From assembly GCA_045577735.1 (NCBI GenBank), contig JAZNIY010000017.1, forward strand, positions 6,972-70,971: a stretch of DNA of 64,000 nt, in the 5' to 3' direction. Under the pieces are notes generated by a model. That model ran no database searches, was not told where the DNA came from, and saw nothing but the letters and a program-made list of their open reading frames with translations. The position numbers and the translations under genes were made by a program. Shown piece by piece: positions 4,607 through 60,690 of the stretch; within the stretch, counting starts at the first letter, position 1; every line of letters begins with the position of its first letter. This DNA is from Candidatus Stercoripulliclostridium sp. Lineage in GTDB: Bacteria; Bacillota; Clostridia; Christensenellales; DTU072.

Positions 4607-4969
4607 TTAGCCCACCTTACCCCTAGGCGTTAGAATTTCACAAATATAGCTTGCTCCCATAAGCATAACTTCTTGAACGAATTTATTGATAATACGATAA
4701 TAAATTATCTTTCCCTCCCTTCTAAAAGCAACCATACCTGCGTCACGAAGTATCTTTAATTGATGGGAAACGGTGGTTTGATTAAGGTCCAAAATGGTGG
4801 AAATATCGCTTACGCAAAGCTCTTCAACGGAGAGCGCAGAGAGCATTTTAAGGCGCGTTACGTCACCGAAAACGGAAAAGAAATTCGCCATATCGGCAAG
4901 GTCTGCGTTCGAGGGCAAATAATGATGTATGGTGGAAAGGGTTTCTAAATCAACAAGCAAGGAATTCAT
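4607..4969 (-). CDS. ArsR/SmtB-family transcriptional regulator
   Basis: Winged HTH (LNQTTVSHQLKILRDAGMV) and a degenerate ELCVSD metal motif. I placed the start at MNSLL (4969), which follows an AAGGAAA RBS, rather than at the ORF-track start of 5026. Confidence 0.8.
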   Translation of the reverse strand: MNSLLVDLETLSTIHHYLPSNADLADMANFFSVFGDVTRLKMLSALSVEELCVSDISTILDLNQTTVSHQLKILRDAGMVAFRREGKIIYYRIINKFVQEVMLMGASYICEILTPRGKVG

Positions 4970-5062
4970 GTTTATTTCCTTTTTTCTTTGATTATAAAAG
5001 TGTAACAAAGAAGAAAGTTCAGGCATATTGTAAAGTAACCACTTAATTTGTCGGAGGTAAAT

Positions 5063-5227
5063 ATGTTTGGAAATAGCACGCTTGCTTTATTGCTTATAGT
5101 ATTATGTTGTGGAGGCTGTGGAAACGATGCCCTTTGTGGCAACAACCAATGCCTTGCCCTACTACTTATAGTGTTGTGTTGCGGAGGCTGTGGGAATAAC
5201 AATTCACTTGGCTTTACGGAAACGTAA
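5063..5227 (+). CDS. Small Cys-rich hydrophobic protein (54 aa) with an internal tandem repeat LALLLIVLCCGGCGN
   Basis: ATG at 5063 follows GGAGG (5053-5057) with a 5-nt spacer. Sequence: MFGNSTLALLLIVLCCGGCGNDALCGNNQCLALLLIVLCCGGCGNNNSLGFTET. The two repeat copies differ mostly by changes that are synonymous in this frame. It is below the length cut-off of the ORF track. Confidence 0.6.
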   Translation: MFGNSTLALLLIVLCCGGCGNDALCGNNQCLALLLIVLCCGGCGNNNSLGFTET

Positions 5228-5293
5228 ACGAAAATATACATACCATTGCGTAAGCAACGTAAATCAAAAAACATAGGTGGGGGGAATATTTCT

Positions 5294-5384
5294 CTTCTCT
5301 ATCCTCCCCCTATTCTACGTTACCCTACGCTTACCTACCCTCCCCTATACTATCCTTATCTCTACTCCCCTTACCTATACTATC
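5294..5384. repeat. G-depleted tract of pentamer-periodic CTNNN (+) / NNNAG (-) units
   Basis: 14 of 15 consecutive pentamers in 5310-5384 start with CT. Three more follow after a 1-nt phase slip (5294-5308). Only 2 G occur in 5291-5395. Confidence 0.8.
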
Positions 5385-5416
5385 CTGGGGCGCAAAAAGT
5401 ACGTCTTTAGGACAAC

Positions 5417-5449
5417 TTTTTTGCGTCTTTTTTGCGTCTTTTTTGCGTA
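5417..5449. repeat. Three tandem copies of the 11-bp unit TTTTTTGCGTC
   Basis: Read directly as ttttttgcgtc ttttttgcgtc ttttttgcgta. Confidence 0.9.
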
Positions 5450-5639
5450 GTTTTGTACACGTTTTTGATTTATTATATCTTGCAAAAATGGTAATATTCT
5501 TGCCTTTTCCTTGACTTTTTAAGCAAAACATATTAGTTTTTCAGTTGACAAATTTTTATTCAAAATGCTTAAGTTTTTTCATTTTGTCAAACATTTTTAG
5601 AACGTCTTTCGTTCAAGTTGCAAACAAGGATTTATTTAA

Positions 5640-5730
5640 GTGCGGAATGCGGAGCAACGCTTGCGCGAGTGCGGAGTGCGGAGCGCGGAACAGCCTTACG
5701 GAGTGCGGAGTGCGGAATGCGGAACGCGGA
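5640..5730. repeat. Heptamer repeat block (NNGCGGA), 10 GGA motifs
   Basis: gtgcgga/atgcgga/gcgcgga/acgcgga units interrupted by gcaacgcttgcgcga and acagccttacgga. Blocks of 41 nt and 27 nt are identical to locus 48781-48855. Confidence 0.9.
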
Positions 5731-5863
5731 ACGACCTCATTTCGCTTACGCTTCACTCACAAGGATAGATTTTTGTTTATGGTTTCCTCTTACTTTTCCT
5801 AGACAGGTCGCCAAAAAACCTTATTATTCAGTTTGAGTTTACTCGCACCAGTTTTAGAATACG

Positions 5864-5990
5864 GTAGACTTCGTTTTTTGGATGAGATACGAACAAAAGA
5901 AAATCTCCCAAGGGGAGTGTACTAAGGCGTACATGACCCGAAGGGAGACTTTTAGTTTTGTGAAGTAGGTCGCCAAAAAACAAAGTCTAC
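5864..5990. repeat. Long-hairpin intergenic repeat unit A1 (127 nt; terminal-stem type 2, core type I)
   Basis: Arms GTAGACTTCGTTTTTTGG and CCAAAAAACAAAGTCTAC are complementary with one mismatch. The apical hairpin is homologous to units at 49301 and 57941. Confidence 0.85.
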
Positions 5991-6532
5991 TTTAAGTTTT
6001 TGGTAATACGCTCCACATACGGCACACTCCAATGATATCCCCAAAGTAGTAATGCATCGTATATAATGAATACGGCAACGAAAAGAAGGTTTAAAAGGAA
6101 ATAAAGGAGTCCTTTGTTCTCCATGGATATATTGAGGGCACTAAAGTTAACGAAGAAAATATCGGTAAGATAGTAAAGGACAAAGAATACGAAACAAGCA
6201 TAAACTACCTTTATGGGGTAGGATATAAACCACTTGATCTTGTCTTTGTGGTCATCTATAACAATGGTAACAATGGTATAGAAACCACCTACCAAAACAA
6301 AGGGTAAAATATGAATATTAGCAAAAATACCGCCAAGCGCACAAACAGCTACGTAAGACAATATTGCTTCACGATAGTATTTTTGCGTAAGCGGTAGCAT
6401 TATCCCAACCGAGGCGAGTAAGTTAAAAGACATACTCAAGTTGGGAATATAGAATGATAAAATTATTGCAACAAGCGATATCGCCGAAGATATTCCGGCA
6501 AGCGCTATTCTCTTTGATGAAAATCTCTTCAC
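5987..6532 (-). CDS. Multi-pass membrane protein, unknown function
   Basis: 181 aa with about 5 hydrophobic segments. It is the last gene of the trpS-DUF5685-J-like operon. Confidence 0.6.
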   Translation of the reverse strand: MKRFSSKRIALAGISSAISLVAIILSFYIPNLSMSFNLLASVGIMLPLTQKYYREAILSYVAVCALGGIFANIHILPFVLVGGFYTIVTIVIDDHKDKIKWFISYPIKVVYACFVFFVLYYLTDIFFVNFSALNISMENKGLLYFLLNLLFVAVFIIYDALLLWGYHWSVPYVERITKNLK

Positions 6533-47977: not shown

Positions 47978-48583
47978 TTAATTAATGCTATTAGTCTCGT
48001 TCGTGGTTACATGGTTTACAGAAAATCTTGTTTTCTTTAAATGTATATATCCATTTGATTTCTCATAAAACACAAATTCAAACCAAGCTCCATTCATAAA
48101 ACTAAACTTAAGTAGTAGTTTACCAGCGTCGTATAAAAACAATTCTTTTGGTAATACCAAAATTTTAGTGGGCTCACCAAACACTTTACGGTCTTTTTCA
48201 TTATACTGAATTGGTGGATACTCGTCCATATAAAACTCTTCTATAACAAACAAGCATTCCATTTCTTCAAAATACGACTCCCGAGCGATTTCCGCAAGAT
48301 CTTCATCGCCACCTGGGTGTGAACTAACATATAACCCAGCCTCTTGATGAGATGGTACCGGATATTCATCTCTTGTTAAATTACTGCCATAATATAATTC
48401 AATAGTAACGTCTTCATCCAATCCAAACGTCATATGTTCATCGTTTATAGTATAACAAAACTGATAATAACGCTTTATAATCTCTTTTGAGCTTTGCCCA
48501 TCATTGTTAATACAACCAACCATAGAAAAAAGTAAAATTAACAACATTAAGCTATTTATTACAAGTAAACATATCTTCTTCAT
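47978..48583 (-). CDS. Lipoprotein, unknown function
   Basis: Signal peptide plus lipobox MVGC. I placed the start at the ATG after a GAGGTG RBS. Confidence 0.6.
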   Translation of the reverse strand: MKKICLLVINSLMLLILLFSMVGCINNDGQSSKEIIKRYYQFCYTINDEHMTFGLDEDVTIELYYGSNLTRDEYPVPSHQEAGLYVSSHPGGDEDLAEIARESYFEEMECLFVIEEFYMDEYPPIQYNEKDRKVFGEPTKILVLPKELFLYDAGKLLLKFSFMNGAWFEFVFYEKSNGYIHLKKTRFSVNHVTTNETNSIN

Positions 48584-48739
48584 TTTTAACACCTCATATT
48601 ATATGGACAATATTGCAAGCCCTAAATGACCAAATTTTGGAATTTTTTTACTTTATATTTACTTATATTAAACATAAAACAAAAGAAAATAACAAATTTC
48701 CTTACTTTTTAACTAATTCTCATATGTTTCCCCACCATT

Positions 48740-48768
48740 AATATACCACCCATCCCCCACCATGTCAA
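48740..48768 (-). promoter_or_regulatory. Candidate promoter for the lipoprotein gene
   Basis: TTGACA, a G-rich 17-nt spacer, then TATATT on the minus strand. Confidence 0.5.
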
Positions 48769-48780
48769 CCCCGAACCTTC

Positions 48781-48855
48781 GTGAGCGCGGAACAGCCTTA
48801 CGGAGTGCGGAGCAACGCTTGCGCGAGTGCGGAGTGCGGAGCGCGGAGTGAGGAA
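48781..48855. repeat. Heptamer repeat block (NNGCGGA), 7 GGA motifs
   Basis: Contains 27-nt and 41-nt blocks identical to 5683-5709 and 5649-5689, in the opposite order. Confidence 0.9.
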
Positions 48856-48919
48856 CGGCTTCACTACGCGTTGCTACGTTCACAAGGAAAAGTTTGAATT
48901 TGTTCTCACCATTGACTAG

Positions 48920-49050
48920 CCTCTTAAAACGCGTTAGTTTGGATGCTAGTCGAAGGAAAATAAAAAAGTTGAGGGGTTGCTGTACTGACGTACTGCGCCC
49001 CGATAACTTCTTTTACTTTTTCAAAGAATAGTGCTAAAATAACGTGTTTT
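48920..49050. repeat. Long-hairpin unit B1 (131 nt; terminal type 1, core type II)
   Basis: Arms AAAACGCGTTAGTTTGG and CTAAAATAACGTGTTTT. Core GGGG-UU-GCUGUAC-UGAC-GUACUGC-G-CCCC. Confidence 0.85.
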
Positions 49051-49063
49051 TACTAGTGTTAGA

Positions 49064-49194
49064 CCTCTAATAAACTTTGGTTTTTAGATGCTAGACAAGA
49101 AAAAGTGAAAAACCGAAAGGTTGCTGTACTAGCGTACTGCTCCTTGAGATTTTTTTGCTATTGACGCAGTATAGCGCTAAAAAACAAAGTCTAT
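49064..49194. repeat. Long-hairpin unit B2 (131 nt; terminal type 2, core type II)
   Basis: Arms ATAAACTTTGGTTTTTAG and CTAAAAAACAAAGTCTAT. The core has an AAGG/CCUU outer stem. Confidence 0.8.
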
Positions 49195-49300
49195 CCCAAG
49201 GGGTTGCTGTAGTAGCAAGTACTGCGCCCTGACGGGGTTTTGGTTTTAACATAGGATAGCACTAAAATGCGCGGTGGGTTGTTCTATTGTTATTGTGGCA
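49195..49300. repeat. Truncated unit B3 (core type II; alternative right junction GCGCGGTGGGTTG)
   Basis: The core is homologous to B1 and B2. The right end CTAAAATGCGCGGTGGGTTGT is identical to 57903-57923. Confidence 0.7.
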
Positions 49301-49431
49301 CCTCTTAAAACGCGTTAGTTTAGATGAAGAACGAGCAAAAAGAAATCCCTCCGACGGGAGTTTACTTTGCGTAAATGACCGAGGAGGGATTTTGTCTTTT
49401 GTGAAGTTATTCGCTAAAATAACGCGTTTTA
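49301..49431. repeat. Long-hairpin unit B4 (131 nt; terminal type 1, core type I)
   Basis: 126 of 131 nt are identical to 57941-58071. Its last bases overlap the dhaK stop codon. Confidence 0.9.
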
Positions 49432-51228
49432 AATTCTTTTGCAGAGCTCCGTAAATATTACTCCCAACCCATAAGCACCGGCATCGGGGTAGTTAAGGCT
49501 ATCGGTAACACCTGCACGACCGAGTTTTGCTTGGATATACTTGGTCTTTTCGGCACCGTCTACTGCTGCGGAAGCTGCTTTTGCCATTGCATCGAGGAGT
49601 GCTTCGCCTGCTACTGCACTTGCGGAGAGGCTGTCTGCTGCGGGAACAAGAGCATCAATTAGAGTCTTGTCGCCAACTACTGCGCCGTGACCAAAGCTCT
49701 TTTCACCGGTGTCTTGAACACCCTTAACTGCTGCTTGGAGAATGTCTGCTAGACCTTGAAGATCAACTTCGTCTTTACCAAGGGCTGTCTTACCTGCCCA
49801 ACGGAATGCGCTTCCCCAAATAGGACCACTTGCACCACCACAGTATTCCATGATGATTTCGGAACAAGATACTAGGAATTCGCCTACGTTACCCTTCTTT
49901 CTGGTAGCCCAATCTGCCTTTAATTGCTTGAAGCCCTTTGCAATACTCATGCCAAAGTCACCATCGCCACAACGGTCTGCTTTACAGAAAGCAACTTCGT
50001 TTTCGATGATGATATCAGCCATGGTTTCTACGATTTTGCCCATTCCTGCAGTATTGATTTTTTCGCCGATAACTGCTTCACCTACGAATTCACATACTGC
50101 GTTTTCTTCTTCAACAGCTTCTTCTACTGCTACGTCTTCTTCAACTGCCTTGGGAGTAAATGCTCCGGGAGTAATGTTTAGTGCCTTTGCAAGTGCTTGT
50201 ACTGCTTCTTTGCAAGCAAGTGCTTCTGCATCAACAGCGCCCCAAGTAATAGCGGGAGTGGATACTGCGTAATCAAGGAGTCCCTTGAGTTCAGCATCAA
50301 CGCGAAGGAGGGTTACACTTGCACCAGCCATATCGATGGAGGTCATGTAGTTGCCAACCATGGTCTTGTATACCTTGATGCCCTTTGCTTCAAGTTCGTT
50401 GGTTACGTCATTGTTGAATAGGTATAGTTCTTGAAGGGGTGAACCACCAAAACCATTTATGAGAAGTGCGATTTCTTCGCCGGCTTTAAGGCCGAGATCT
50501 TCAATAAGGTCTGGGATAATTCTTTCTGCAAGAGCCTTGGAAGATTGTAGTTTTTCTCTCTTTCTTCCGGGTTCGCCGTGGATGCCTACGCCGAATTCCA
50601 TTTCGTCTTCACCAATTTCGAAGGTGGGGCTTCCTGCTGCGGGAACGGTACAAGAAGTTAGTGCGAAACCAAAGCTTCTTACGTTATCGATAACCTTTTG
50701 TGCTACTGCCTTAACTTCTTGGAGTGAGCCACCTTGTTCTGCCTTAGCACCGGCAATCTTGTGTACGAATACGGTACCTGCAACGCCACGACGGCCTACG
50801 GTATATAGGGAGTCTTTAACTGCGATATCGTCGTTTACGTATACGGCATCAACTTCTACACCATCTTCTTTTGCAAGAGCTGCAGCGTTGTTGAAGTTCA
50901 TGCAGTCACCGGAATAGTTCTTAACGATCATAAGGGTACCTTTCTTGGATGCGGTAAGCTTAAGTGCGTTATAAACTTGAATTTGTGAGGGAGATGCAAA
51001 TACGTCACCACATACTGCACAGTCCAACATACCCTTGCCTACAAAACCAGCGTGTGCAGGTTCGTGACCAGATCCACCACCGGAAATAAGGGTAACTTTG
51101 TTCTTGTCGATAACTTTCTTTTTAACAACTTTATATTTTTCTACAAATTCAAGTTCCGGATGTGCCTTTGCTAGGCCGTGACACATATCGTATACGAAAC
51201 TTTCAGCAGTATTCATTATTTTCTTCAT
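49429..51228 (-). CDS. Fused DhaK-DhaL dihydroxyacetone kinase
   Basis: 599 aa. Dak1 motif GGGSGHEPAH, an acidic linker, then a Dak2 domain. Confidence 0.88.
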   Translation of the reverse strand: MKKIMNTAESFVYDMCHGLAKAHPELEFVEKYKVVKKKVIDKNKVTLISGGGSGHEPAHAGFVGKGMLDCAVCGDVFASPSQIQVYNALKLTASKKGTLMIVKNYSGDCMNFNNAAALAKEDGVEVDAVYVNDDIAVKDSLYTVGRRGVAGTVFVHKIAGAKAEQGGSLQEVKAVAQKVIDNVRSFGFALTSCTVPAAGSPTFEIGEDEMEFGVGIHGEPGRKREKLQSSKALAERIIPDLIEDLGLKAGEEIALLINGFGGSPLQELYLFNNDVTNELEAKGIKVYKTMVGNYMTSIDMAGASVTLLRVDAELKGLLDYAVSTPAITWGAVDAEALACKEAVQALAKALNITPGAFTPKAVEEDVAVEEAVEEENAVCEFVGEAVIGEKINTAGMGKIVETMADIIIENEVAFCKADRCGDGDFGMSIAKGFKQLKADWATRKKGNVGEFLVSCSEIIMEYCGGASGPIWGSAFRWAGKTALGKDEVDLQGLADILQAAVKGVQDTGEKSFGHGAVVGDKTLIDALVPAADSLSASAVAGEALLDAMAKAASAAVDGAEKTKYIQAKLGRAGVTDSLNYPDAGAYGLGVIFTELCKRI

Positions 51229-56160: not shown

Positions 56161-56952
56161 TTAACGTTTTTTATTCTTAGCCTTTGTTGGTAACTCATAG
56201 GCGTTATGATAACAAAATGCAAAAAATATGGTAAGAATAATTGATATAATTGCACTATATAGCAGTAAAATCGTATTGGGACTAATTTCAATATGCCCTA
56301 CAATATTTTCGTTTAGTCCACCGAAATTTAATCCTGCGATTTGTAACATATAGGTTAACTCTACTTCCAACCAAACGACCTCGACAACCAAACTAGCTAC
56401 GAACAGCAATAGAAAAAGCATTGTAACAGAGCCTATTGCAATGAGTGATTTCTTAATCTTCGAAATTCCGGTATTATAAAACCAGCGTGCAGTAGAAGCG
56501 TTTATGCCAGTTATAAGGGATATTTCATTAAAAGTATAATTTCCTAACACTTTTAAGGTTATAATCTTTTTGCGTTTTTCATCCAGTCCTATTAGCATTT
56601 CGTCAAACCCATCGACGTTAGCATAGTTACATATGCTATTTTTATTGCACAAGCTTTCAATATCGCTGGGAAGAACGATCTTTTTATCCTTTCTGATAAC
56701 GTCAATAGTTGCATTTTTTATTACTTTAGTCAGCCAAGATATTTCATTGTCTTCGGGTAATTTGTCCACTTCCATACTCATCAGCTTTAATATTACGTTG
56801 TGCACCACGTCCTCGCTTTTGTAGTGGTCCTTGCAGACCATAAAAGCAATAGCATAAAGCTTATTGTATTGTGAAGAATAAAGCAACTCGATCCCCCTAT
56901 TGCGATCCTTACGAATTAAATCGAATATTTGCTTCATTTCCTTATTGCTCAT
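56161..56952 (-). CDS. ECF-type sigma-70 family factor fused to two C-terminal TM helices
   Basis: Region 2 (DVVHNVILKL) and region 4 (NEISLITGINASTARWFYNTGISKIKK), followed by hydrophobic segments. The ATG follows a GGAAGG RBS. Confidence 0.7.
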   Translation of the reverse strand: MSNKEMKQIFDLIRKDRNRGIELLYSSQYNKLYAIAFMVCKDHYKSEDVVHNVILKLMSMEVDKLPEDNEISWLTKVIKNATIDVIRKDKKIVLPSDIESLCNKNSICNYANVDGFDEMLIGLDEKRKKIITLKVLGNYTFNEISLITGINASTARWFYNTGISKIKKSLIAIGSVTMLFLLLFVASLVVEVVWLEVELTYMLQIAGLNFGGLNENIVGHIEISPNTILLLYSAIISIILTIFFAFCYHNAYELPTKAKNKKR

Positions 56953-56973
56953 TCGCACCTTCCAACGTCAATA

Positions 56974-57633
56974 CTATAACTCGACAAATGCACCTAAAAG
57001 TTTTTCTGCTACACCGAGTGCTTTTTCGTATTTGTACTCGTAATCAACAGCCAGGCTATCGTCAATCAAAAACTCCATTTCGATAGAATAATCTTTAGTA
57101 TGATGCCTAACTAGTATATTATAACCCACTCTTGAATCCTTACTTCCCACACTTTCCACCTTGCATTTTCTATCCAATATCCTAACGTTTTCCGAAAAAT
57201 AATCGGAAAATCCTTTGTAGGTTTCTTTTCGCATCGTTAAACTCGGTTTTATCCCGACAAACAAAAAAGCACTTCTTTTTAACGGCGTAGCTACCTTTAT
57301 ATTTATTCTGCTATACAGCTCACCCTCAATTATAGCATTCGCGTAATAAGAATATTGCTCCGTCTTTTTAATGTCCTCTCCCTCTTTATAGTAGCTTATA
57401 GCATGAAAACTTTCATCATAGTCAACTATTACTCTAGAACTGTTAACGTAACAACCAACACCATCTATTAAGTTTAGAAAGCTACCTTCATCGCACTCAA
57501 CTTGTTGTTTTAATAGAGTCCTTTCTTCCTTTGAATAGGCCGTCATTTCCACGCACCAAACACCCAAAATAATACCCAAAATCAACAATATGATTAAAGA
57601 TACAAATATTACGTATTTAATACTTTTGATCAT
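56974..57633 (-). CDS. Membrane-anchored protein, unknown function
   Basis: 219 aa with an N-terminal TM. It lies immediately upstream of the sigma gene and is probably co-transcribed with it. Confidence 0.55.
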   Translation of the reverse strand: MIKSIKYVIFVSLIILLILGIILGVWCVEMTAYSKEERTLLKQQVECDEGSFLNLIDGVGCYVNSSRVIVDYDESFHAISYYKEGEDIKKTEQYSYYANAIIEGELYSRINIKVATPLKRSAFLFVGIKPSLTMRKETYKGFSDYFSENVRILDRKCKVESVGSKDSRVGYNILVRHHTKDYSIEMEFLIDDSLAVDYEYKYEKALGVAEKLLGAFVEL

Positions 57634-57788
57634 AAGGACTCCTTTTTAGTTTTCCATCTAATTATATAAACGCACAAGACGTAGTAAATTGTTGGTGCTA
57701 TTATTCAATTTTTAATAATTTCGTTCACAAGGAAAATGTCTATGATACAAGAGTGGTCTAACCTGCACAAAAAAAACAACGAGTACTC

Positions 57789-57940
57789 GCGAATAAAACG
57801 CGCTAGTTTGGATGCTCCCCGACGCAAAATTAAAAACTCTCACGACGGGACTTTACTAAGGGTAAACGACCGAGGGAGGCTCTTGTTTTGTGATGTTGTT
57901 CGCTAAAATGCGCGGTGGGTTGTAGTTGGTTTATGTATTG
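57789..57940. repeat. Long-hairpin unit C1 (degenerate core type I; alternative right junction)
   Basis: Left arm AAAACGCGCTAGTTTGG. The right end CGCTAAAATGCGCGGTGGGTTGT matches that of B3. Confidence 0.75.
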
Positions 57941-58071
57941 CCTCTTAAAACGCGTTAGTTTAGATGAAGAACAAGCAAAAAGAAATCCCTCCGACGGGAG
58001 TTTACTTGGCGTAAATGACCGAGGAGGGGTTTTGTCTTTTGTGAAGTTGTTCGCTAAAATAACGTGTTTTA
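57941..58071. repeat. Long-hairpin unit C2 (131 nt; terminal type 1, core type I)
   Basis: 126 of 131 nt are identical to 49301-49431. Confidence 0.9.
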
Positions 58072-58230
58072 CCATTCTTTGGCCCCATCATGCTTCACAT
58101 CATCATAAAACTCGAAATACTTGCGTTTCTGCTCTGCAAGCGCTCTTTCTCTTGCGCGCTTTTTTGCGAGCTCTTCCTTGGTTAATACCTTTTTAGGAGT
58201 TGTAGTGGTGGTTGTCTTTTTTTCTTCCAT
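58069..58230 (-). CDS. Possible small Lys/Glu-rich protein (53 aa)
   Basis: MEEKKTTTTTTPKKVLTKEELAKKRARERALAEQKRKYFEFYDDVKHDGAKEW. It lies 2 nt downstream of the yhbY stop, and its own stop codon lies inside repeat unit C2. Confidence 0.35.
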   Translation of the reverse strand: MEEKKTTTTTTPKKVLTKEELAKKRARERALAEQKRKYFEFYDDVKHDGAKEW

Positions 58231-60240: not shown

Positions 60241-60257
60241 ATTTCACCTCTTAAAAT

Positions 60258-60286
60258 ATGATAACACTAAATCATTAACTTTTCAA
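60258..60286 (-). promoter_or_regulatory. Candidate promoter for the M20 peptidase gene
   Basis: TTGAAA, a 17-nt spacer, then TATCAT on the minus strand. Confidence 0.5.
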
Positions 60287-60353
60287 GTTAAGCGTAATTA
60301 CTTTCATAAATTTTGCTAAATTTGCGCAAAAAAGAAAGGGCACCTAGTCGCTC

Positions 60354-60541
60354 TTCCCGTAGGGAATTGCGACAACTAAATAAATCCTTACGGATTTGTG
60401 ATATTCGTCTAACGACGAGTGATATTGCCTTACGGCAGTGATATTCGCCTACGGCGAGTTATGGATTTATTTAATATCACTTTGGCGTAGCCAAAATATA
60501 ACTGCTTGTAAAACAAGCAATACAACTTTTTGCCACAAGGC
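60354..60541. repeat. Array of eight mini-hairpins, including three tandem GTGATAT-plus-hairpin units
   Basis: Stems are ttccc/gggaa, aatcc/ggatt, tcgtc/gacga, tgcc/ggca, tcgcc/ggcga, ttggc/gccaa, tgcttg/caagca and gcc/ggc. Loops are GTA, TTAC, TAAC or TAC. Confidence 0.8.
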
Positions 60542-60581
60542 TAAAAATATAACTTATTAAACTTAATCTTTTGTGGATAAG

Positions 60582-60626
60582 AAAAGCCCACCATATTTCG
60601 CTTTTTGCGAAGTATAGTGGGCTATA
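60582..60626 (-). terminator. Terminator after the 819-aa lipoprotein gene
   Basis: 17-bp imperfect stem agcccaccatatttcgc / gcgaagtatagtgggct, followed by a T-rich tail on the minus strand. Confidence 0.65.
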
Positions 60627-60690
60627 CTTTTGTTATGAACTAAAAATCCCTAATAGAAGAGACCTTAAAGTGCCCTTAAATATTTCATAA

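Follow-up and report, generated by a model that had tools for sequence, protein, structure and literature searches.

Interspersed mosaic hairpin repeats at opposite-strand stop codons in a lineage of gut Clostridia

Repeat loci and the hairpin unit

The window analyzed here is a 64-kb stretch of chromosomal DNA from an anaerobic gut Firmicute ("Candidatus Stercoripulliclostridium sp.," contig JAZNIY010000017.1) with a GC content of ~42%; 47 of its 60 genes lie on the minus strand, and the GC skew is negative on the plus strand. The gene content includes pyruvate:ferredoxin oxidoreductase, a fused dihydroxyacetone kinase, an iron alcohol dehydrogenase, and an ArsR-type regulator. Three intergenic gaps of 712, 836, and 435 nt, here called loci A, B, and C, hold copies of a hairpin unit, and at each locus the last copy overlaps a stop codon that belongs to an opposite-strand gene (Table 1). 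These units belong to a lineage-specific family of interspersed mosaic repeats, the core of which is an imperfect hairpin of ~125 nt (length 120–131 nt) that occurs in arrays of one to four.

A preliminary description of the window had proposed that loci A and B contain the same parts in the same order, namely a C-rich tract, a block of NNGCGGA heptamers, a box, hairpin units, and the stop codon of a minus-strand gene, within unusually long gaps that lack a credible ORF. The heptamers, box, hairpins, and stop codons are all present, and the gaps are as described. Locus C, which had been described as box plus units, does contain two units and no heptamers, but only the core of the box. We built a covariance model from the six window copies of the unit and ran it on the window and on related contigs. 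It recovered the six full units, all on the plus strand, with no further unit anywhere in the window, and a total of 76 units in the window and the contigs of seven related species of gut Clostridia.

Table 1. Coordinates of the features at loci A, B, and C (where the covariance-model match ends before the unit does, its span is given under remarks)
Feature	Coordinates	Strand	Remarks
Heptamer microsatellite, locus A	5639–5731	+	Heptamer stretches shared with locus B
Box variant ACGACCTCATTTCGCTTACGCTTCACTCACAAGGATAG, locus A	5732–5767	+	Also seen at dhaK in strains L001 and L007
Fragment of unit 3′ arm, between box and A1	~5794–5820	+	5′-truncated copy; found by profile search
Terminal unit A1	5863–5989	+	110 bits; −59.5 kcal/mol, z −10.1; last CTA (5987–5989) complements the TAG codon that ends gene 5987–6532
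Sigma-70-type promoter TTGACA-17-TG-TATATT	48740–48768	−	Strong; 11/12 matches, extended −10; serves lipoprotein-like gene 47978–48592
Heptamer microsatellite (NNGCGGA)n, locus B	48783–48854	+	Copy number and composition vary between strains
Box GGCTTCACTACGCGTTGCTACGTTCACAAGGAAAAG, locus B	48857–48892	+	Same box after heptamers in other species
Linker TTTGAATTTGTTCTCACCATTGACTAGCCTC between box and first unit	48893–48923	+	Near-identical linkers in L001, L038, L045, and L049
Unit B1, internal, beta-type apex	48924–49050	+	103 bits; −44.7 kcal/mol, z −5.5
Unit B2, internal, TAGAC-type outer stem	49069–49195	+	106 bits; model match 49069–49193
Unit B3, 5′-truncated, apex and 3′ arm kept	49196–49283	+	Insertion sequence (IS) elements inside this copy in L004, L005, and L006
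Terminal unit B4, alpha-type	49305–49431	+	140 bits; −58.8 kcal/mol, z −8.7; model match 49305–49430; last TTA (49429–49431) is the complement of the dhaK stop
Dihydroxyacetone kinase gene (dhaK), abutted by B4	49429–51228	−	Dak1 and Dak2 domains
Box core TTCACAAGGAAAA, locus C, without heptamers	57724–57736	+	Directly upstream of the array
Unit C1, internal, outer helix degraded	57793–57916	+	80 bits
Terminal unit C2	57945–58071	+	138 bits; 96% identical to B4; model match 57945–58070; last TTA (58069–58071) is the complement of the stop of a 53-aa gene, 58069–58230

Exact-pattern and model searches located units in four "Candidatus Stercoripulliclostridium sp." metagenome-assembled genomes (MAGs) and in three "Clostridia bacterium" MAGs from sheep or goat, all of them close relatives (protein identity to the window 81–98%; DhaK 94%). 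Contigs of strains and related genomes that carry the repeats are denoted by L-numbers (e.g., L001, L029, and L060). Of the 76 units found by the model, 73 were used for the strand-stability test and 74 for pair scoring and the reading-frame test, and 44 arrays had a readable downstream gene. Outside this clade, 15 matches to the unit pattern in JGI metagenomes and the genome-scan matches in Fredinandcohnia, Rhizobiales, Mariniphaga, and a Hadza-MAG were judged to be due to chance because none fits the covariance model; the box pattern had no match in the JGI metagenomes. A phage or plasmid origin was rejected, since phage and plasmid DNA showed no similarity to the repeats at the megablast and blastn level and viral contigs contained no exact-pattern match. 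A match to a described RNA family would have refuted the preliminary interpretation, and Rfam provided none: a scan of the whole window gave Gut-1 at 60373–60449 as its sole hit and no family for the repeats at the gathering threshold, while permissive scans of loci A and B peaked at 15–23 bits against thresholds of 39–249.

The best-preserved copies in the window have folding energies of −57 to −60 kcal/mol and, relative to shuffled sequence, z-scores of −8.7 to −10.1, which bears out the hairpins noted initially; one degraded internal copy and two truncated fragments do not stand out from shuffled sequence in this way. In the alignment of the units, 91% of the cells are paired, compared with 78% in column shuffles and 40–49% when the partners are slid, and 32 of the 40 pairs show double (compensatory) changes, which none of 500 shuffles matched. 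The outer helix of 11 bp is variable at every pair, with compensation, and its variants (AAAACGCGTTA/TAACGCGTTTT, AAAACACGCTA/TAGCGTGTTTT, AAAACGCGACA/TGTCGCGTTTT, and TAGACTTTGG/CAAAGTCTA) are largely species-specific. The second helix, UUUAG-A-UG / CG-C-UAAA, is near-invariant and has a U·G pair in 74 of 74 scored sequences, and the purine-rich internal loops of the unit are conserved as well. The apex is of an alpha type (GACGGGAGUUUAC...GUAAAUGACCGAG) or a beta type (GAGGGGUUGCUGUAG...CUACUGCGCCCCGAC), and the two are swapped on the same outer stem between strains.

The two strands of the unit are not equivalent. In the unit-sense fold, GU and UG pairs outnumber AC and CA pairs by 233 to 52; all 73 units tested are more stable in the unit-sense orientation (mean of −49.5 versus −40.1 kcal/mol); and the units contain more G than C, although their strand otherwise contains more C than G. 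Taken together, these asymmetries imply that selection acts on a single strand, as RNA or possibly DNA, in the unit-sense orientation. A protein-coding role was rejected, as even the best reading frame is open in only 17 of 74 units and no frame is conserved.

Junction with opposite-strand stop codons

Of the 44 arrays for which the downstream gene could be read, 36 have a last unit that overlaps an opposite-strand stop codon (35 TAA and one TAG), a feature that the preliminary description had listed for loci A and B; the remaining eight arrays lie 2–16 nt from such a stop, and four of these stops are TAG or TGA. TAA accounts for 70% of the stops in the window, so that its near-exclusive use at arrays is significant (p = 4e-5). 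The base of the hairpin, TAAAAC...GUUUUA, includes the complement of TAA; the first base pair uses the first base of the stop codon, and in 25 of the 36 overlapping cases there is no further pair into the gene. This base is a perfect palindrome and could thus also supply a TAA to a same-strand gene at the 5′ end of the unit, yet this option is unused: no unit was seen whose 5′ end abuts a same-strand stop, the closest case being 10 nt away.

The junction leaves the protein as it is. Orthologous genes end in ...QTIKK-TAA whether a unit is absent (L041) or present (L031 and L047), and therefore the unit neither shortens nor lengthens the protein; truncation or extension of the ORF was rejected on this basis. 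The 53-aa gene of locus C also occurs in L046, where the C-terminal part of its coding sequence is unchanged. In L029, a related genome whose DhaK is 94% identical in protein, a unit is located at the same dhaK stop codon, with compensated stem changes from CGCG/CGCG to CACG/CGTG. Ordinary genes of the window have short GC hairpins that begin a few to ~40 nt past the stop rather than at it, which led us to reject insertion of units into pre-existing terminators.

The orientation of a unit is set by the gene that it abuts. Unit orientation correlates with strand skew in 21 of 23 cases, which is expected if most abutted genes are on the leading strand. Replication itself was rejected as the factor that sets orientation because both orientations are found, each following the abutted gene, only a few kb apart at four loci (L011, L038, L054, and L057).

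Contig L041 also contains three units in strict 127-nt tandem (5445–5850). Here, the sequence of the 5′ arm, GGATTAAACCGCATA, reads as the reverse complement of the final codons and the stop codon of the abutted gene, and the junction carries a 12-nt direct duplication, ATATGCGGTTTA. It is the sole case in which the helix reaches 4 nt into the coding sequence.

Composition and turnover of the arrays

Arrays are polar. The top model score within an array nearly always belongs to the terminal unit, and terminal units form 10.1 of the 11 pairs of the outer helix versus 6.9 in internal units, whose 3′ arm mostly reads AAAATGCGCGG... rather than ending in a T-run. The core without the outer helix folds at −40.4 kcal/mol in terminal and −31.8 kcal/mol in internal units (p = 1e-5), and internal cores are also less well paired. 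In truncated copies, it is the 3′ half that is retained.

Comparison of strains shows that the arrays are reshuffled far faster than the adjoining genes. Among contigs with an identical DhaK protein, the dhaK gene is 96–99.4% identical to that of the window and the upstream gene 98%, while the intergenic module at dhaK exists in at least five versions that differ in heptamer number, box variant, unit number and type, internal deletions, and IS insertions in unit apices. Locus C likewise has one to four units depending on the strain, with a different terminal unit, and in two strains a different upstream gene. Thus, arrays B and C are mosaic while their flanking genes are 98–100% identical (dhaK itself as above); the promoter at locus B is conserved in L001, L007, and L009 while the adjoining repeats change. 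In L060, array C of the window is extended by one unit, which lies precisely between C2 and the stop. Since this extra unit is bordered by homologous 3′ arms of the adjoining units, unequal recombination can gain or lose terminal units with the junction kept. The two loci compared within the species showed content changes only and no presence/absence polymorphism; for filled and empty sites at ordinary terminators within species, no exact protein was on record for the genes looked up. One filled/empty pair of orthologues was found between species, with a precise junction at TAA and an unchanged protein end; its downstream flank could not be aligned.

Several strains carry IS elements within units. 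Downstream of dhaK in L004 and L006 (~5049–6241) and at the contig ends of L005 and L008, an IS3-family element (HTH_Tnp_1 and rve ORFs) and a second IS with similar ends are located inside the apex of a beta-type unit, and the two insertion positions are ~25 nt apart. The ends of these elements (TGTCTAACTTTTGGG...TCA) are unlike the unit ends. These insertions suggest that IS elements favor the apices as targets, as they do REP sequences.

Gene content next to the arrays varies too, at locus C even between strains with identical flanking genes. Upstream of array C, the 265-aa and 219-aa genes of the window are missing from L059 (compared with window 56161–57790) and replaced by an MFS transporter in L061, and the 204-aa lipoprotein-like gene beside array B is absent from L029; the arrays thus mark borders of variable gene content. 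They are hot spots at which strains differ by rearrangement and IS insertion. Metagenome assemblies of this gut clade break at the arrays, which might be used as strain-typing markers.

The heptamers and the box together constitute a second module, in which a heptamer microsatellite is followed by a box of ~35 nt with the consensus GCTTCACTNCG-N8-CGNTCACAAGGAAAA. The heptamers GTGCGGA and GCGCGGA are concentrated at loci A and B, whose heptamer blocks have stretches of 30–47 nt in common at 98–100% identity. The plus strand of the window has three copies of CACAAGGA and no more, each directly upstream of a hairpin array; the box of the form ...CTTCAC...CACAAGGA ends at 5765 in locus A and 48888 in locus B, and its core recurs at 57726 in locus C. 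The module is present in other species, where the box is kept and the heptamer differs by block (GTGCGGA/ACGCGGA, ATGCAGA/ATTCAGA, or ATGCAAA); the heptamers are invariably 5′ of the box. It is placed at the end of the array away from the abutted gene, and in L038 and L054 it is in tandem. The order of heptamers, box, linker or partial unit, unit(s), and opposite-strand stop recurs ~12 times across loci and species, which agrees with the initial view of a modular element as opposed to random repeats. The order is not obligatory, as about two-thirds of the unit arrays lack the module, and the module, which is in unit orientation ~12 times, is inverted four to five times (L031, L050, L011, and L028). 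We therefore do not retain the idea of a single fixed module of ~700 nt. On neither strand does the heptamer-box part fold better than shuffled sequence, and a structured RNA in this part was rejected for that reason; a degenerate unit was rejected as well because the profile search found fragments of the unit 3′ arm only beside the module and none within it. At loci with tandem genes (locus B of the window and L061), the module is directly upstream of the promoter of the next gene, and heptamer number could affect that promoter.

The C-rich tract was rejected as a module and is excluded from the family. Compared by eye, without formal alignment, the tracts at loci A and B have no evident similarity. 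That of locus B is the spacer of the minus-strand promoter, which makes up most of the tract, and that of locus A is 250 nt away from the heptamers. Among the other heptamer-box modules listed, a C-rich tract is found upstream only in L001 and L009, which are strain copies of locus B.

Known repeats, possible roles, and neighboring elements

To our knowledge, the function and spread of dispersed hairpin repeats in bacteria are largely unsettled, although such repeats are common. The present family was previously undescribed, and it is best read as a family of mosaic repeats like BOX/BIME/ERIC/SPRITE: it has distinct modules, a recurrent order, and module numbers that vary between strains. In architecture and strain variability, the closest system is BOX (boxA-boxB(n)-boxC) of Streptococcus pneumoniae, which PMC3049150 describes as a composite modular intergenic repeat with variable tandem internal modules, a predicted RNA fold, and a strain-variable number of modules. 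The present family is likewise composite and modular, with a variable unit number and, for the units, a predicted RNA fold. As judged from the published descriptions rather than by direct comparison, its phylum and sequences differ from those of BOX and BIME, and nothing in the BOX account resembles the units in sequence. It also differs in that the repeated module is itself a 125-nt hairpin and in its polar arrays on an opposite-strand stop, a rule that the account of BOX in PMC3049150 does not report.

In proposed role, the closest system is SPRITE, a pneumococcal repeat resembling a Rho-independent terminator, with an 18-bp duplex and a long U tract, that is enriched near the 3′ ends of coding sequences and may have been co-opted as a terminator, according to PMC3049150. 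Both repeats are dispersed, resemble oversized terminators, and are found near 3′ gene ends; unlike SPRITE, the present unit is a nested hairpin of 125 nt that runs antisense to the adjoining gene and meets its stop codon to the exact base. In size and shape, the units are closest to ERIC (IRU/RU-1), the intergenic, MITE-like (miniature inverted-repeat transposable element) imperfect palindromes of 127 bp from enterobacteria (PMC2759123, in excerpt), for which orientation-dependent effects on flanking transcripts are described (PMC3049150, in excerpt). Both are intergenic imperfect palindromes over their whole, near-equal length. ERIC belongs to another phylum, the excerpts of PMC2759123 and PMC3049150 mention neither tandem polar arrays nor a stop-codon rule for it, and the likeness is one of form, the sequences not having been compared. 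In mosaic habit, the family is closest to REP/BIME/REPIN, extragenic palindromes that occur in mosaics, are targets of IS insertion, and have proposed roles in termination and mRNA stability (excerpts of PMC3733652 and PMC5581495; for the mosaic habit, PMC3733652). REP sequences are 20–40 nt long with a GTAG/CGTC tag at one end, unlike the present units, which are 120–131 nt long and have untagged ends, TAAAAC...GTTTTA; the units were therefore not assigned to REP or REPIN. A base-exact antisense stop-codon rule is not reported in the excerpted accounts of BOX, SPRITE, ERIC, and REP/BIME.

The stop-codon junction also recalls the attC sites of integrons. These are imperfect hairpins of 57–141 nt, more conserved in structure than in sequence, which lie at the stop codon of the gene before them or overlap it; their functional fold is on the strand opposite the coding strand, and their arrays vary between strains. 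The units resemble them in all these respects, being structure-conserved hairpins over a stop codon, folded on the non-coding strand, in strain-variable arrays. Unlike attC sites, they have no R″/R′ core sites (RYYYAAC / GTTRRRY) at their ends, which on the gene strand read TAAAACGCG...CGCGTTTTAAG, and they are directly in tandem without cassette genes between them; the abutted genes are ordinary housekeeping genes in conserved positions. Lacking both core sites and cassette ORFs, the units do not qualify as attC sites. An IS-derived MITE, e.g. of the IS630/Tc1 type, also does not fit, since the outer 11 bp are variable at every pair while an internal helix is near-invariant. TA is present at both palindrome ends, so that a target-site duplication would be inseparable from the inverted repeat itself. 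As to the heptamers, heptameric repeats are abundant in bacteria (PMC4692102, in excerpt). Those described here resemble cyanobacterial STRR and other 7-nt repeats in being intergenic tandem heptamers of variable copy number, and differ in that they are always followed by one particular 35-nt box, which is kept while the heptamer varies.

The sharp rule seen here, with its base-exact stop junction, invariably antisense orientation, and best-preserved gene-proximal copy, does not follow from any current model of REP, ERIC, BOX, or MITE elements. The preliminary description had suggested a large structured RNA, a terminator or insulator cassette, or a non-autonomous mobile element. One large structured RNA is unlikely, given the heptamer-box part that does not fold beyond shuffles and the strain-variable number of units; the other two are the readings that we rank highest. 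Our preference, held tentatively and at somewhat less than an even chance, is for a role of the units as terminator-insulators at the RNA level. Each unit would consist of two nested, bidirectional terminator-like hairpins, an inner one with an A-tract, a GC stem, and UUUUGUCUUUUGUG, and an outer one, AAAACGCG...CGCGUUUUA. A terminator scan flags the inner stems and T-runs on both strands, the outer stem has CGCG followed by UUUU(U)A, and the U-tail is richer on the unit-sense side, with 6.9 U in 12 nt; in sequence, then, the units have the GC-rich stem directly followed by a U-rich tract of a putative intrinsic terminator. Because the strand on which the fold seems to be selected would be the one transcribed toward the abutted gene, the terminal unit would halt convergent or antisense transcription right where the ORF ends. 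On the other strand, it would also end the transcript of the abutted gene itself; on the gene strand downstream of dhaK and of the 53-aa gene, the scan flagged no other terminator-like hairpin. Turnover most likely proceeds by unequal crossing-over and gene conversion among dispersed copies with the stop-codon register kept, internal copies decaying while the terminal copy is maintained. The intact terminal hairpin and the better U-tail fit a terminator-insulator at the gene edge.

Several points weigh against this. The upstream convergent gene in L029 has a classical terminator of its own, and therefore little transcription should reach the unit in the selected orientation. The U4–5 tail is itself paired to the A-tract, which is a weak terminator signal, and compensatory changes can also result from template-switch correction in a DNA palindrome, without selection on RNA. 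The conserved purine-rich loops and the invariant U·G pair suggest a specific binding partner, which would be superfluous in a terminator. Antisense protection would work without base-exact abutment, which leaves part of the position law unaccounted for, and the terminator model leaves the heptamer-box module, the anchoring at stop codons, and the fixed antisense orientation unexplained.

A possible, though rather unlikely, alternative for the units is selfish mobile DNA, non-autonomous and akin to MITE, REPIN, or attC elements. A transposase or recombinase acting in trans would then read the folded strand and insert at the TA or TAA of stops; growth would be gene-proximal, older copies would decay, and any terminator activity would be incidental. 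The family is dispersed and of high copy number, with three loci in 64 kb and many contigs that end in units, and the species-specific variants of the outer stem suggest concerted evolution. The TA at both palindrome ends recalls TA-duplicating elements, the apices contain IS elements as REP sequences do, and selection of the fold on one strand is also compatible with a single-stranded DNA substrate. The intactness of the terminal copy, the extra unit of L060 exactly at the stop-proximal junction, and the filled/empty orthologue pair with its precise TAA junction and unchanged protein end could all be read as insertion. However, the most variable part of the unit is its terminal 11 bp and the near-invariant part an internal helix, which is the opposite of transposase-bound terminal repeats, and a 3-nt target alone cannot yield stop-codon specificity or a fixed orientation. 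In addition, the folded strand corresponds to the lagging-strand sequence and not to the lagging-strand template used by IS200/IS605-type systems, and within the species, the two loci compared differ in content but not in presence. No recurrent enzyme gene or paralogous family is found among the 211 ORFs neighboring units, and an enzyme gene traveling with the units was therefore rejected. The family could be a natural test system in which selection of such repeats as terminators or insulators is set against homing to gene ends.

A function in the mRNA of the abutted gene seems improbable. The unit would there be a 3′-UTR hairpin that begins at the stop codon and stabilizes the message against 3′ exonucleases or modulates translation termination, like REP near Escherichia coli stops. 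That the hairpin starts base-exactly at the stop codon, that it is the only structure flagged behind dhaK and the 53-aa gene, and that the complementary strand still folds at about −40 kcal/mol would all suit such a function, but the better fold and the tolerated G·U pairs are on the other strand, against the regional mutational skew, and the opposite orientation, which would give a stronger hairpin in the mRNA and be equally compatible with TAA, is never used.

We also give little credence to a novel insertion process, site- and strand-specific, that would build the arrays by placing new units exactly at stop codons, antisense to the gene, while older units are displaced outward and decay. 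Such a stop-codon-homing element, read as a folded single strand of DNA or RNA, would have no known counterpart among transposons, integrons, or retroelements. Least probable of all is an array transcribed independently as a structured non-coding RNA, or as a protein-binding or sponge RNA in which the units are binding hairpins and the GGA-rich heptamers and CACAAGGA box further sites (e.g., CsrA-like, with the box core ACAAGGA presumably resembling the CsrA SELEX motif): the universal U·G pair, purine-rich internal loops, sequence-invariant helix, strand-specific fold, and promoter-like hexamers upstream of some arrays point in that direction, but copy number and composition vary freely between strains, most arrays lack the module, which is also inverted in some cases, the heptamer is not the same in every block (GTGCGGA, ATGCAGA, or ATGCAAA), the heptamer-box fold is not above background, and no consistent promoter was found.

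Some further elements were noted near the repeats. The Gut-1 RNA (RF01706; 58.5 bits against a threshold of 50), on the plus strand, is within a 450-nt gap (60241–60690) and overlaps tandem mini-hairpins of ~19 nt at 60398–60459. GTATAGCCCACTATACTTCGCAAAAAGCGAAAT and similar AT-rich mini-hairpins are also present downstream of a gene in L041 (positions 1–385), and mini-hairpins with GTATAGCCCACTATACTTCGCAAAAAGCGAAAT may be a second gene-end repeat family of the clade. Adjoining the gene of the ArsR-family regulator (4607–5026, minus strand) is a 59-aa ORF (5048–5227, plus strand) that encodes two copies of LLLIVLCCGGCGN. This ORF, cysteine-rich and led by a hydrophobic stretch, matches no Pfam family, and its predicted product could be a small metal-binding or metal-sensing peptide. 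Finally, locus A has three tandem copies of CTTTTTTGCGT, identical to one another (5416–5448, plus strand), which follow a hairpin, GCGCAAAAAGT...ACTTTTTTGCG, and have the C-rich tract on one side and an AT-rich stretch on the other. Together, they look like a putative terminator of the small upstream plus-strand ORF.

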